64,000 nucleotides of DNA, from the IMG/VR virus record IMGVR_UViG_3300047476_000521, positions 72,103 to 136,102 of that record; one strand, 5' to 3'. Positions 15,510 to 36,425 of this stretch are shown piece after piece. Origin of the DNA: a virus. Under the pieces are notes generated by a model. The model saw only the letters and a program-made list of their open reading frames with translations. It was not told the DNA's origin and did no database searches. Each line of letters opens with the position of its first letter. Position 1 is the stretch's first letter. A program made the position numbers and the translations under genes.

Positions 15510-16886
15510 ATGTATCTAGCTGAGGAAATTCAAAACAAGTGGGCACCAGTCCTTGACCATGACGCTCTTGGCGCCATTAAGGATCAGCACCGCCGTTCAG
15601 TCACTGCAGTTATGCTCGAGAACACAGAGAAGGCTCTCCGTGAATCAGCAGCACACGGTGACTATCAGACACTAACAGAAACAAGTTCACTAGTTCCATC
15701 TAACCTAATGGGCGCTTCAAGCTCCACTCAGGGTACTGGTGGTATCGATACTTTCGATCCAGTTCTTATTTCTCTAGTTCGTCGTGCAATGCCAAACCTA
15801 ATGGCATACGACATCTGCGGCGTTCAGCCAATGACTGGACCAACTGGTCTTATCTTCGCAATGCGTTCACGTTATGCTAATACAACTAGCTATAACAACG
15901 CTGGCGCAGAAACATTCTATAACGAAGTTAACACTCAGTTCTCTTCTGTTACATCTGGTGCTAACACCTTCGGTCAGAAGCATGTTGGTACTATCCCAGG
16001 TGCAACTAACACTTCACCACTAACAGCAGTCAACACCTATAACACTGGTGCTGCAATGGGTACTTTCCAGGCTGAAGCTCTTGGAACTGACTCAAACACT
16101 GCTTTCCCACAGATGGCATTCTCAATTGAGAAGGTTACTGTTACAGCTAACACTCGTGCTCTAAAGGCAGAGTATACTATGGAACTAGCCCAGGATCTTA
16201 AGGCTATCCATGGTCTCGACGCTGAAACAGAACTAGCTAACATTCTTTCAGCAGAAATTCTAGCTGAAATCAACCGTGAAGTTGTTCGTACTATCAACAT
16301 CACTGCTGAGGCTGGCGCTCAGGAAAACACAACTACTCCAGGCGTGTTCGATCTTGACACTGACTCAAACGGTCGTTGGTCAGTTGAAAAGTTCAAGGGT
16401 CTAATGTTCCAGCTAGAGCGTGAAGCTAACCAGATCGCCAAGCAGACTCGTCGTGGTAAGGGTAACATCGTTATCTGTTCTTCAGACGTTGCTTCTGCTC
16501 TACAGATGGCTGGTGTTCTTGACTACGCTCCTGCTCTTAATTCAAACAACCTACAGGTTGACGATACTGGAAATACTTTCGCTGGTATTCTAAATGGTCG
16601 TCTACGTGTTTATATCGATCCATACGCTCTTGGCGGAAACTATCTAACTGTTGGTTATAAGGGTTCATCAGCTTTCGACGCTGGTCTATTCTATTGCCCA
16701 TACGTTCCACTACAGATGGTTCGTGCAGTTGATCAGTCAAGCTTCCAGCCAAAGATCGGCTTTAAGACTCGTTACGGCATGGTCGCAAACCCATTCGCTG
16801 AAGGTCTTACACAGGGCTTTGGTCGTTCTAACGTTATTAGCACTAACAAGTACTATCGTAGAGTTATTGTTACTAACCTTATGTAA
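15510..16886 (+). CDS. gp23: Major capsid protein gp23
   Basis: GVQPMTGPTGLIFAMR, ELAQDLKAIHGLDAE, FQPKIGFKTRYG. Confidence 0.98.
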   Translation: MYLAEEIQNKWAPVLDHDALGAIKDQHRRSVTAVMLENTEKALRESAAHGDYQTLTETSSLVPSNLMGASSSTQGTGGIDTFDPVLISLVRRAMPNLMAYDICGVQPMTGPTGLIFAMRSRYANTTSYNNAGAETFYNEVNTQFSSVTSGANTFGQKHVGTIPGATNTSPLTAVNTYNTGAAMGTFQAEALGTDSNTAFPQMAFSIEKVTVTANTRALKAEYTMELAQDLKAIHGLDAETELANILSAEILAEINREVVRTINITAEAGAQENTTTPGVFDLDTDSNGRWSVEKFKGLMFQLEREANQIAKQTRRGKGNIVICSSDVASALQMAGVLDYAPALNSNNLQVDDTGNTFAGILNGRLRVYIDPYALGGNYLTVGYKGSSAFDAGLFYCPYVPLQMVRAVDQSSFQPKIGFKTRYGMVANPFAEGLTQGFGRSNVISTNKYYRRVIVTNLM

Positions 16887-24233: not shown

Positions 24234-24612
24234 TTTTTATAAAGATGTAAAAGAGTTTCAAACAGCAGTAGGTCAGAACGTAGGACAGGCTCCAGCTTTT
24301 CCTGATAACTCTGAACGTGCTTTACGAATGAGACTTCTAGAAGAAGAGTTTGACGAATACAACGAAGGCGAGTATAATAACGACTTGGAAAACATCGCTA
24401 AAGAGCTTGCTGATATTATTTACATTGTATGTGGCACTGCTGTTTCGTATGGTATTCCTCTTGATAAAGTATTCGATGAGGTTCATCGATCAAACATGGC
24501 AAAGTTAGTTGATGGTAAACCAATTCGTCGTGATGATGGTAAGATTTTAAAGCCAGAGGGTTGGACGGCTCCTGACATTAAAAAGATTCTTTATGGAGTA
24601 AGTGATGGTTAA
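24226..24612 (+). CDS. MazG-like nucleoside-triphosphate pyrophosphohydrolase
   Basis: EE..E, KELAD..Y, EVHRSNM.K, R.DGK.LKP. Confidence 0.85.
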   Translation: MTNFYKDVKEFQTAVGQNVGQAPAFPDNSERALRMRLLEEEFDEYNEGEYNNDLENIAKELADIIYIVCGTAVSYGIPLDKVFDEVHRSNMAKLVDGKPIRRDDGKILKPEGWTAPDIKKILYGVSDG

Positions 24613-25987
24613 ACGTATTGTTGCAAGAGAAAAACATGATTCTGAACATCTTCTAGGAACATTTCTAGACGAAAGTCATTATGATGTTTTAATCACAAAA
24701 GATACAGATTGTTTCATGCCGCCGAACTGCGATGTCATTACCAAGGCAGATTGCGGTATGAATGATTGTGATACTTGCGAAAAGGGTAATGACGAACTAC
24801 GTATTGCTTTTAAGTTTCGTAAGAATTATTTCTCCAAGCAAGAATGTCATGAAGCATATCTTGGTCTAAGGGGTGCAGCTACTGAATCGCAGAACCGTGG
24901 TCTAGCTGCTGGGCCTCGTGGAGAAATGCTTGCATGCGAAGGTCGTGGCGGTCGTGATTGGGTTACTCCTTATCAGGCTGAGATGCTAGACTTTCTTCAG
25001 TTAGATGCTGCTAACTTAGAATCTTATTTTGACGAAGAAACTTCAGTAGAAAGCATTCGTGCTAAGTATAACGATCCTAAATATAAGCCAGTAGACGAAA
25101 CTCGTGGCACTGTTTGGCTTCGTTCTGAGGTCGAAAAGGTTTATCCTGAGTATCATGGTTGGTTCGATAAGTGGGTCGATGGCCTTAGTAATAAACCAAA
25201 GGAGATGGTTCGTGAAGAAGCAAGAATGGTTGCAGAAAAGTGGGCTTCGACCACAAATTATGCCAAGTCCGTGTTCTCAGGTGTGGCTGGCTGGTACGAT
25301 CGTTACCCTCGCATTCCTTATGGGCGTCCAACTTCATATACTGAGAAATACCCAGAGCTATTTGAGCAAGCATATCCATTCCTCCAAACCCTAAACAAGG
25401 GTTTTCGCGAACTCCTTCCTTGGCGTTGGAAGAATCAGCGTGCTGCTGCAGATAAGCTTGATCCACGCTTCCTAGTTCCAGGAACAGTGTTTACTACAAT
25501 CACTGTTAATAAAACATTCAGAACTGCAGCGCACAGAGATGCTGGTGATCTTGAATCAGGATTATCAAACCTTCTTGTTCTAGGCTCAGGAGATTATACT
25601 GGTGGTTATCTTATTTTCCCTGAGTATAGGATTGCTGTTGATGTTCGTCCTGGCGATCTCCTTCTTGTTAATAATCATGAAATTATTCATGGAAATACAC
25701 CTATTGTACTTAACAATCCTGATGATCCTGCTTGCGAGAGAATCTCCGTAGTTTGTTATTTCCGAGAGAAGATGCTTGAGCTAAAGGGTTATGACTACGA
25801 AGCATTGCGTAAGCAATATGTTGAAGAACGTCGCATGAATAAGGATCATCGTTTACATCGTCCGTTGTGGAATGGAGTTTCACCAGGAATGTGGGAAGAA
25901 AAAGAATGGTATGATTATCTCCATGAACATGGTATGATTGATCCTTATGGTAAGGATGAAGTTGCAAGCCTAGAAGGATTTTTCTAA
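24605..25987 (+). CDS. TET/JBP-family 2OG-Fe(II) dioxygenase (pyrimidine methyl hydroxylase)
   Basis: FTTITVN..FRTAAHRDAGD (HxD), HGNT, R.S.V.YFRE in a double-stranded beta-helix; adjacent to a glycosyltransferase. Confidence 0.8.
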   Translation: MVKRIVAREKHDSEHLLGTFLDESHYDVLITKDTDCFMPPNCDVITKADCGMNDCDTCEKGNDELRIAFKFRKNYFSKQECHEAYLGLRGAATESQNRGLAAGPRGEMLACEGRGGRDWVTPYQAEMLDFLQLDAANLESYFDEETSVESIRAKYNDPKYKPVDETRGTVWLRSEVEKVYPEYHGWFDKWVDGLSNKPKEMVREEARMVAEKWASTTNYAKSVFSGVAGWYDRYPRIPYGRPTSYTEKYPELFEQAYPFLQTLNKGFRELLPWRWKNQRAAADKLDPRFLVPGTVFTTITVNKTFRTAAHRDAGDLESGLSNLLVLGSGDYTGGYLIFPEYRIAVDVRPGDLLLVNNHEIIHGNTPIVLNNPDDPACERISVVCYFREKMLELKGYDYEALRKQYVEERRMNKDHRLHRPLWNGVSPGMWEEKEWYDYLHEHGMIDPYGKDEVASLEGFF

Positions 25988-35531: not shown

Positions 35532-35756
35532 ATGAAATATCTACACGAAAAATATCCCTTTACTTTTGGTGTGATATTTTTTATAATATATTTCGCATTG
35601 GACTTTATTGATGCTAGATTTTTCATACCAAGAAAGATCGCTGAAGCAAGACAATGTGAGTTAGATGATAAGTGTAGAACTTGGATAAATATACACACGG
35701 AGGATGGCGTGCATGGTGCACACACAGTCTTGAAAACTGCGCCACCGAAAGGTTGA
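35532..35756 (+). CDS. Possible small membrane protein overlapping tRNA-Ser(TGA)
   Basis: MKYLHEKYPFTFGVIFFIIYFALDFI hydrophobic segment; 3' end runs into the tRNA. Confidence 0.35.
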   Translation: MKYLHEKYPFTFGVIFFIIYFALDFIDARFFIPRKIAEARQCELDDKCRTWINIHTEDGVHGAHTVLKTAPPKG

Positions 35757-35782
35757 TGGTTCGATTCCTTCATCCTCCGCCA
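35699..35782 (+). tRNA. tRNA-Ser(TGA)
   Basis: GGAGGAT/ATCCTCC acceptor, loop CT-TGA-AA, V-arm, G73, CCA. Confidence 0.85.
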
Positions 35783-35827
35783 CTTTTTTATTGACATCTT
35801 GACTAAATAAAGTATACTAGAGTTTAT

Positions 35828-35903
35828 TGCGGGTGGGAGGTATTAGTATCTTGTCGGTTTCATACGCCGATAGAAGTGGGGGCAGTTCCCACACCCGCTT
35901 CCA
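35828..35903 (+). tRNA. Initiator-like tRNA-Met(CAT) with atypical T-loop
   Basis: U1:U72 mismatch then GCGGGT/ACCCGC; loop TT-CAT-AC; T-loop GGCAGTT; U73-CCA. Confidence 0.7.
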
Positions 35904-35981
35904 GTATAGATACATATTCCTCAAACTGGATCCGCTATGCCGAAAGGTGCGAGGACAATGTGTGTCTTATGTGCCGTGCTT

Positions 35982-36076
35982 GGCCCGTCACGGGATATAA
36001 ATCTACGGGGTGCATGTCGATAGATGCGAGCAGTCCATTGCTTGTATTGTGCTATCTGACCGCTAACGGGCCTCCA
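35982..36076 (+). ncRNA. CCA-terminated tRNA-like RNA G with a Cys-type acceptor stem but no cloverleaf
   Basis: GGCCCGT/ACGGGCC-T-CCA followed by the GTTTAT trailer seen after real tRNAs; no T-loop or canonical anticodon arm. Confidence 0.55.
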
Positions 36077-36082
36077 GTTTAT

Positions 36083-36156
36083 ATCGGTGAAGTGTTACGG
36101 TAGCACATCTGTCTCCAAAACAGAGGGCGAGGGTTCGACTCCTTCCGCCGGTGCCA
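36083..36156 (+). tRNA. tRNA-Trp(CCA)
   Basis: Cloverleaf, loop CT-CCA-AA, G73, CCA. Confidence 0.92.
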
Positions 36157-36240: not shown

Positions 36241-36242
36241 TT

Positions 36243-36420
36243 TGATGTTGAATTGTTTCAATGGAAAGGTCTGTTGAAACACAGTTGGAGTCGAGATTTC
36301 AACCGCCAGGGCAGGCGTTCCAACAGCCCGACTGTTATGTGCCTTCCAGAGACCGTCTGCGTAGCGGGCGGAACCTTGCACACTAGGTTTTCTGTTTCCT
36401 GGGGAAGAAAAACAGACAGA
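36243..36420 (+). ncRNA. Putative multi-hairpin ncRNA H
   Basis: TGTTTCAA/TTGAAACA, GTTGGA/TTCAAC, CCGTCTGC/GCGGGCGG, TCTGTTT/AAACAGA hairpins in the Pro-Val spacer. Confidence 0.45.
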
Positions 36421-36425
36421 ATTAT

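Follow-up and report, generated by a model that had tools for sequence, protein, structure and literature searches.

The stretch of DNA analysed here (the window; 64,000 nucleotides) is part of a 136-kb IMG/VR virus record, which was assigned to a T4-type myovirus because its terminase, sheath, portal, major head protein, clamp loader and ribonucleotide reductase match PHROG families. The best capsid matches among cultured phages were to Stenotrophomonas phage DLP_6 (71%) and to Sinorhizobium phages of the phiM12 type (65%). Between 32.6 and 38.9 kb the window carries a tRNA array, where ARAGORN called 27 + strand tRNA genes, all of them (27/27) ending with an encoded CCA at the 3' end; Rfam gave 22 tRNA matches in the window at the gathering score. 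Inside this array, between a tRNA-like gene (35828-35903) and the start of tRNA-Trp (36083), lies on the + strand the element studied here (35973-36076), which is very probably a small structured RNA, of roughly 105 bases, of a conserved family of pseudoknotted phage RNAs. Its parts are as follows, P0 to P3 designating the helices.

35974-35978 (+): 5' strand of P0, CCGTG, in the leader; pairs with 35989-35993, with covariation
35979-35981 (+): loop 1, CTT; its 3 nt cross the P1 helix and its last base is position -1 of a possible RNase P cut
35982-35988 (+): 5' strand of P1, GGCCCGT (the 'acceptor' strand); from sequence and covariation
35989-35994 (+): 3' strand of P0, CACGG, plus G13; no spacer after P1
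35995-36000 (+): first part of loop 3, ATATAA; A-rich, conserved as ATAKAA in all aligned members
36001-36011 (+): P2 mini-hairpin, ATC TACG GGGGT region; U.G and C-G closing pairs, then conserved G and U
36012-36015 (+): P2-P3 junction, GCAT; 36015 is A instead of T in a relative's contig
36016-36060 (+): P3 arm, GTC/GAC, GATAG/CTATC and ATGCGAGCA/TGCTTGTAT, with internal loop TGTG
36033-36038 (+): apical loop of P3, GTCCAT; contains the TCCA of the family, kept in 30/33 members
36061-36065 (+): junction C plus the conserved GCTA, leading into the 3' strand of P1
36066-36072 (+): 3' strand of P1, ACGGGCC; from sequence and covariation
36073-36076 (+): discriminator T (36073) plus encoded CCA (36074-36076)
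36077-36082 (+): trailer GTTTAT, before tRNA-Trp (36083)

The original prediction, made from the sequence of the window, described a CCA-ended RNA at 35982-36076 with a perfect 7-bp stem (GGCCCGT/ACGGGCC), a T discriminator, irregular interior hairpins and no cloverleaf. The stem, the discriminator and the CCA are exactly as it gave them. The absence of a cloverleaf was confirmed with ARAGORN, which called no tRNA gene at 35982-36076 and no transfer-messenger RNA (tmRNA) in the window, and with Rfam, which matched nothing at these positions at the gathering score, nor at E<=10 when 7.5 kb or the isolated 133 nt were scanned, apart from two chance-level matches (E 5.5 and 8.6). Rfam 15 holds no family matching the element, be it a tmRNA, a tRNA-like structure (TLS) or a riboswitch family, and none of the nine homologues scanned was matched. 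The interior was likewise folded by RNAfold into a long irregular hairpin without a T arm, closed by a 6-nt GUCCAU loop (minimum free energy of -35.6 kcal/mol; z = -2.6; 1/200 shuffles folding equally well).

Two other claims stood in part. The GTTTAT trailer is present, whereas its proposed habit of following the tRNAs of this array is limited to GTTT after 5/27 and to the exact GTTTAT after 2/27 of them. The fold begins upstream of 35982, at about 35973, although 35982 may be the right 5' end of a processed form. What had been missed is the leader helix, which makes the 'acceptor stem' a part of an H-type pseudoknot, together with the conserved UCCA loop.

Crossing helices P0 and P1 in the family

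A homologue search, which the original prediction had proposed as a check, yielded 33 distinct homologues in phage and metagenome contigs. Viral contigs were first scanned for both strands of the stem plus a TCCA, 60-90 nt apart, which gave 30 loci, consisting of 18 clear homologues and 12 unrelated GC-rich DNAs. Patterns based on the conserved interior alone then recovered members with other discriminators and other stem sequences, from 70 metagenome loci and from 16 genome loci that include a single member, L229 (loci are designated here by L and a number). As defined by motifs leaving out every variable paired position, the family comprises 72 instances (some contigs being present in two collections), which correspond to 33 distinct sequences from viral, metagenome and one genome collection, with a stem-to-stem length of 52-95 nt.

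The element is built in the order P0 5' strand, 3 nt, P1 5' strand, 0 nt, P0 3' strand, long loop 3 and P1 3' strand, and the crossing of P0 (CCGUG/CACGG) and P1 (GGCCCGU/ACGGGCC) is the classical layout of an H-type pseudoknot. The evidence for both helices in the family is the following. First, the 5' flank is conserved, as CCGTG in the window and as CCGCG, CCGCC, CCGTC or CCGCT in other members. Second, in the covariation alignment A6 (22 rows, MAFFT), 95.4% of the P0/P1 cells are paired, as compared with 23.5-48.1% when the partners are slid by 1-3 columns, and the covariation score was reached by 0/500 shuffles. Six pairs of A6 change on both sides, with four such pairs in P1, while the variable pairs of P0 are CG in 17 rows and UA in 5 at one position, and GC in 10, CG in 6, UA in 2 and UG in 1 at the other, none being unpaired among the rows with letters; the few unpaired cells of A6 come from three rows of a diverged copy, paralog B (see below), and from L100, which MAFFT misaligns. 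Third, the original prediction had made its case depend on the conservation of the stem in relatives, and the stem, which is well beyond what chance would give, is paired and covarying in 33/33 distinct members, positions 1-4 of P1 occurring in 12 combinations that are always fully paired. Fourth, P0 stands at a fixed 3-nt spacing in 32/33 members (2 nt in L141), the last base of loop 1 (position -1) being T/U in 29/33. Fifth, in an alignment of the short class (12 rows) pairing is complete (100%) in both P0 and P1 and reaches 83% in P3. The + strand is the oriented one, because the 12 G.U pairs of P0/P1 would be mismatches on the other strand.

Extensions of these helices found less favour. 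A sixth pair of P0 exhibits no covariation, A standing opposite G in the members with G13. A pairing of bases 10-12 with the CCG before GCTA, which would lengthen the stem, was rejected; it conflicts with P0 and is possible only in one subclade (7/33). It should be added that MAFFT combined with RNAalifold recovers only P1 from the family, P3 being misaligned.

Conservation was also followed in contigs from a search of sequencing runs (24 runs, all consisting of contigs, share at most 0.20). Short contigs from two runs cover 35963-36068 and 35963-36071 with one difference and have flanks unlike those of the window. In a third run, a relative's 3.4-kb contig differs across 35970-36076 by three substitutions and by no insertion or deletion, one substitution falling in the P2/P3 junction, one turning an A-U pair into G.U and one lying in an internal loop; over the adjacent 35913-35962 this contig shows 12 substitutions and 10 deletions. 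The leader strand belongs to the fold and is subject to selection.

Loop 3 and the distribution of the family

Loop 3 consists of ATAKAA, the P2 mini-hairpin, GGGGT, the variable P3 arm and GCTA, in that order. The loops of P2 are of the UUCG, UACG and GAAA types, and paired insertions lengthen this hairpin, which MAFFT misaligns, in L100, L165, L202 and L272. Every row of alignments A1 and A2 has GCTA, as do 19/22 rows of A6, the other three rows having GCGA. P3 is the variable part. It is absent from L141 and L301, has 4 bp in L202, mostly has 6-10 bp where the segment from GGGGT to GCTA spans 25-29 nt, and reaches 11-17 bp by RNAfold in the members with 43-51-nt segments (17 in the window copy). 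Its pairing is maintained: the apical helix has a mean of 6.07 consecutive pairs with its own partner versus 2.33 with the partners of other members, and 5/7 pairs of P3 change on both sides in the short class.

The sequence TCCA occupies the tip of P3 in 30/33 members. An NCCA tail was found in 31/33 distinct members, including all 30 that have the UCCA loop, and members lacking this loop mostly lack the encoded CCA as well (L177, L301 and paralog B; L141 is the exception). The two CCA-bearing sites and the junction core are the invariant parts, pairs 1-4 and N73, which hold the identity of an ordinary acceptor stem, being variable. Of the NCCA tails of the 33 members, 9 begin with T, 6 with A, 13 with G and 2 with AG, and pairs 1:72 to 4:69 vary across the family. 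These data do not uphold the tRNA-Cys flavour that the original prediction saw in the stem and in U73, since the tail starts with T in only 9/33 members, the terminal pairs vary and there is no GCA loop, tRNA-Cys identity being given by U73, as major determinant, and a GCA anticodon (PMC9976931); U73 is a trait of the window copy and its near relatives, not of the family. The acceptor stem of the phage's own tRNA-Cys (37193) differs from P1 of the element.

We also considered whether a conserved TATAAAT-like box of the family, which resembles the late promoter of T4, might be a promoter. This reading was rejected; L089, L093, L139 and L229 have a G there.

Most copies of the RNA are inside or beside tRNA arrays. 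At least one tRNA gene occurs within about 1 kb (mostly within 250 nt), in the listed part of the locus, in 14/22 scanned loci; two of the remaining ones have tRNAs only at about 1.4-2 kb and six have none. In the first batch, 16/16 members whose locus holds any tRNA lie inside arrays, and several members abut the neighbouring tRNAs within a few bases. In smaller phages, a few copies are found just upstream of long open reading frames (ORFs) of terminase or portal size. There is one copy per whole record in 3/3 carrier records searched, one of the three having only the paralog B form. The sole member from the genome collection, L229:1712-1818 (-), lies in an array of 9 tRNAs; the 160-kb contig that holds it was binned to a Lysinibacter sp. 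metagenome-assembled genome and may itself be a phage contig or a prophage. In L089, L093, L107 and L114 a conserved ORF of 165-167 amino acids starting with MPGPLWE directly follows the element (9-18 nt).

Two kinds of divergent members were observed.

L093:428-529, L146:400-501 and L159:12059-12160; also in L095, L096, L171 and L210: paralog B
L141:9034-9103, L301:2155-2233 and L177:196-272: minimal members without the P3 arm, 52-61 nt

Paralog B is a second, diverged copy that shares arrays with a normal copy. P0 and the interior motifs are preserved in it, whereas P1 has 6 bp with two G.U pairs, GCGA stands instead of GCTA, and an encoded CCA is lacking, a short arm with a UUUCAGU(G) loop taking the place of UCCA. 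The minimal members, in which CCA is kept in L141 and is missing from L301 and L177, define the smallest conserved core.

The searches that returned nothing also bear on the distribution. None of 80 loci fetched through the clamp-loader protein, about 30 of which hold tRNA arrays, contains the element according to blastn, nhmmer or the covariance model R2. Blastn searches of cultured (INPHARED) phages with three members gave nothing, or chance matches (E>=1) inside genes, and DLP_6 has neither a tRNA array at the syntenic place nor a match to R2. We found no description of the RNA family in the literature searched, in which the 10,006 candidate viral RNAs of PMC10690425 were not compared with it.

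Several features around the element in the window are recorded here in their own right.

35791-35818 (+): sigma-70-like promoter, TTGACA, 16 nt, TATACT; 11/12 consensus positions; upstream of the tRNA-like gene at 35828

This site is a consensus match only (4 such sites were found versus 1.7 expected in shuffles), and a transcript with the element, tRNA-Trp and tRNA-Pro probably starts there. The tRNA-like gene 35828-35903 was called tRNA-Met (CAT) by ARAGORN and has no Rfam tRNA match even at E<=10; its 3' end is T-TCCA, its T-loop region looks unusual by eye, and a similar gene exists in L054 (about 15610-15685). The segment 35223-35314 was called by ARAGORN as a 92-nt tRNA-Ile (TAT) with the anticodon at position 31, and among the Rfam models it scores highest with tRNA-Sec, at 28.5 bits (threshold 47); comparable long calls of Ile-TAT were obtained in L003, L054, L066, L072, L113/L216 and L141. 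The tRNA-Ser (TGA) gene at 35698-35782 also scores best with the tRNA-Sec model, at 41.8 bits, which is above the general tRNA model and below the threshold of 47. ORF-poor spacers adjoin the element (35904-35967 and 36241-36425), the first of them being poorly conserved in a relative's contig. Further away, a 461-amino-acid protein (24602-25987) matches phrog_24024 and, weakly, the queuine tRNA-ribosyltransferase family.

Candidate roles of the RNA

We incline, with middling confidence, to the proposal that the RNA acts as a tRNA mimic handled by the enzymes of tRNA ends. As no spacer separates the two helices, P1 (7 bp) would be expected to stack on P0 (5-6 bp), forming a 12-13-bp rod with a free NCCA, the dimensions of which would match those of the acceptor/T-arm minihelix of tRNA. 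Loop 3 would begin with its A-rich stretch running along the groove of P0, back to the junction, and both P2 and P3 would exit at this junction, 7 bp from the CCA end, at the place where the anticodon/D limb exits in tRNA. The RNA would be transcribed within the tRNA polycistron, excised by the tRNA enzymes of the host and trimmed to CCA at its 3' end. RNase P would probably cut loop 1 after U-1, generating the 5' end at 35982. According to PMC12710915, H-type pseudoknots that carry a 3' RCCA are cleaved in loop 1 by bacterial RNase P, most rapidly when position -1 is U. The RNA would act through its NCCA end and its anticodon-like UCCA loop, both presented to a host factor recognising tRNA ends; the most likely partner would be an aminoacyl-tRNA synthetase (for charging or sequestration), and the next candidate a defence toxin that modifies CCA ends. 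No gene for a synthetase of the TrpRS/TyrRS class (PF00579; tryptophanyl- and tyrosyl-tRNA synthetases) or for a CCA-adding enzyme was found in the five carrier records searched, two of which are complete, so that host enzymes must do any processing or charging.

The following points weigh against a tRNA mimic. First, the length of P3, from none to 17 bp, is hard to fit to one distance between acceptor and anticodon for a synthetase. Second, the base after CCA in the P3 loop is often a pyrimidine, and this loop has 6 to 8 nt or more in several members, the window copy included. Third, the discriminator and pairs 1-4 vary, and no single acceptor identity is kept. Fourth, the discriminator of the window copy is U, whereas the RCCA motif of the RNase P study has a purine there (PMC12710915). 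Fifth, the stacking, the groove contacts and the L-shape are deduced from spacing only. Sixth, the sequencing runs found consist of contigs only, from which RNA ends, strand and expression cannot be read. Seventh, the RNA occurs in 0/80 phage loci that share the clamp loader, and it is consequently dispensable within the window's own clade.

A more specific version of the mimic, to which we give limited credence, is a true chargeable TLS, the CCA end of which would be aminoacylated by the host TrpRS, or by the cysteinyl-tRNA synthetase (CysRS) for the copies with U73, such as that of the window, in the way that plant-virus TLSs are charged by synthetases; once charged, the RNA would associate with EF-Tu, or supply or sequester its amino acid. 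It would be the phage counterpart of the plant-virus TLS, with the UCCA loop in the role of the anticodon identity element, the stacked P0 and P1 in that of the acceptor/T arm, and the charged or uncharged mimic steering host translation or stress signalling during infection, and in this full form too we regard it as possible rather than likely. UCCA, which equals U33 plus the Trp anticodon, is at the tip of P3 in 30/33 members, and the discriminator is G in 13 UCCA-tipped members, including 10/10 of the compact ones (less than about 75 nt), G73 and the CCA anticodon being described as major Trp identity elements in both E. coli and B. subtilis (PMC9976931). In addition, three sequence types that are devoid of UCCA or P3 and of CCA (L177, L301 and paralog B) suggest that these sites are retained or lost jointly. 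CysRS is still worth considering for the window copy, because U73 alone gives minihelices a cysteine identity (same source). Conversely, the length of P3 is not conserved (0 to 17 bp), the long class, to which the window copy belongs, has a U or A discriminator, the loop of the window copy has 6 nt, and any charging must be left to the host, no PF00579 gene being present in the five carrier records.

An equally tentative alternative is that the RNA serves as a decoy or sponge for the defence enzymes that attack tRNA 3' ends, such as toxSAS enzymes pyrophosphorylating CCA or MenT-type nucleotidyltransferases, thereby sparing the real tRNAs during infection. A chargeable carrier and such a decoy were the two roles suggested in the original prediction. 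A free NCCA on a helix of tRNA length, encoded beside tRNAs in many unrelated phages, would suit this role, and toxins of defence systems that recognise the acceptor stem and alter the CCA end do exist, as reported in PMC11245113 and PMC10435456; the variation in acceptor pairs and discriminator could correspond to different toxins. However, an RNA present in a single copy would need to prevail over the entire tRNA pool, the conserved UCCA loop and the invariant core would remain without explanation, and no precedent appeared in the literature searched on phage tRNA mimics and defence.

It is rather unlikely that the element is a processing or stability module only, the tRNA-like end of which would recruit RNase P and 3' trimming enzymes so as to cut the polycistron or an mRNA leader and to cap the RNA on either side, with no role in trans. 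A pseudoknot with NCCA and U-1 fits the features of RNase P substrates (PMC12710915), and in small phages the element stands just upstream of the terminase/portal-size ORFs, not always among tRNAs, but a cutting signal would need neither the ATAKAA, GGGGU and GCUA core, nor P2, nor the UCCA arm, all of which are kept across very different phages. A cis-regulator of the downstream gene that senses a ligand or a protein (a riboswitch-like pseudoknot) is very improbable. Such a regulator could have this compact and highly conserved pseudoknot core, and an ORF with a ribosome-binding site begins 9-18 nt after the CCA in L089, L093, L107 and L114; against this, the downstream neighbour differs from locus to locus (tRNA-Trp here; tRNA-Val, Gly, Thr or various ORFs elsewhere), an expression platform is lacking, the NCCA end resembles that of the tRNA neighbours and no Rfam riboswitch is matched. 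Finally, a decayed tRNA gene or a short coding stretch, as might be imagined from the location in a tRNA array and from the 75-amino-acid open frame (35876-36103) that spans the element in the window, can practically be set aside in view of the compensatory changes in three helices, the lengths of 52-95 nt with non-triplet differences, the stops in all six frames in 4/33 members with no common open frame in the others, and the conserved motifs, which are not tRNA motifs.

Comparison with known systems

Similarly to the canonical tRNA (RF00005), the phage RNA has a 7-bp terminal stem, one discriminator base, an encoded CCA and a place in a tRNA array, and, like tRNA-Trp, it has a loop carrying U plus CCA. 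Unlike the canonical tRNA, it is devoid of D arm, T arm and cloverleaf. The tip of P3 was considered as a copy of the anticodon arm of the phage's own tRNA-Trp and the idea was rejected, the two not being similar; the loop is CUCCAAA in 23/25 distinct tRNA-Trp sequences called by ARAGORN in the fetched loci, and the context of the loop differs in the element.

A close architecture is that of the TYMV (turnip yellow mosaic virus) TLS, described in PMC9976931 as having an acceptor arm built by a pseudoknot and a matching anticodon; PMC12710915 and PMC9976931 also present it as a substrate of RNase P with U before the cut. As in this valine-type TLS, an H-type pseudoknot of the phage RNA builds an acceptor-like helix ending with CCA, and an anticodon-like loop occurs elsewhere in the RNA. 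In contrast to the TYMV TLS, the phage RNA is a free-standing gene among the tRNAs of double-stranded DNA phages, not the 3' end of an RNA genome; its extra arms are inside loop 3, not 5' of the pseudoknot; it has no T arm; and it does not match the TLS families of Rfam.

With the pseudoknots cleaved by RNase P it shares the succession of loop 1, stem 2 and NCCA, and U-1 in 29/33 members (PMC12710915), a source that also names the T2/T4 gene 32 pseudoknot plus ACCA and the TYMV TLS as related RNase P cases. Those substrates are a synthetic biotin aptamer and an mRNA leader, whereas the phage family has a large structured loop 3 and a UCCA arm. With RNAC and RNAD of T4 (species 1 and 2 RNAs), which PMC3014915 describes as small RNAs of unknown role in the tRNA cluster, it has in common that it is a small RNA in the tRNA cluster of a T4-type phage; the T4 RNAs differ from it in length (119 and 139 nt) and in folding. 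A homology with T4 rnaD, suggested by eye from a 10-mer and a 3' end shared with L089, was rejected, neither the T4 tRNA region nor the complete record of T4 being matched by the covariance models R1 and R2 (E<=10 and E<=1).

In kind, the phage RNA stands beside the TLS with a pseudoknotted acceptor arm, already familiar from RNA viruses of plants, while its topology, its genomic setting and the family itself are new. A conserved and independently encoded version of such a structure, spread over tRNA arrays in many DNA phages that are not related, would demonstrate mimicry of tRNA ends in bacterial viruses as well. Being short and strongly covarying, this RNA would be suited to testing the role of the 'extra' RNAs of phage tRNA clusters, a question that has been open since T4 RNAC and RNAD, and the family offers both putative natural pseudoknot substrates of RNase P and a candidate for RNA-based counter-defence or synthetase manipulation.

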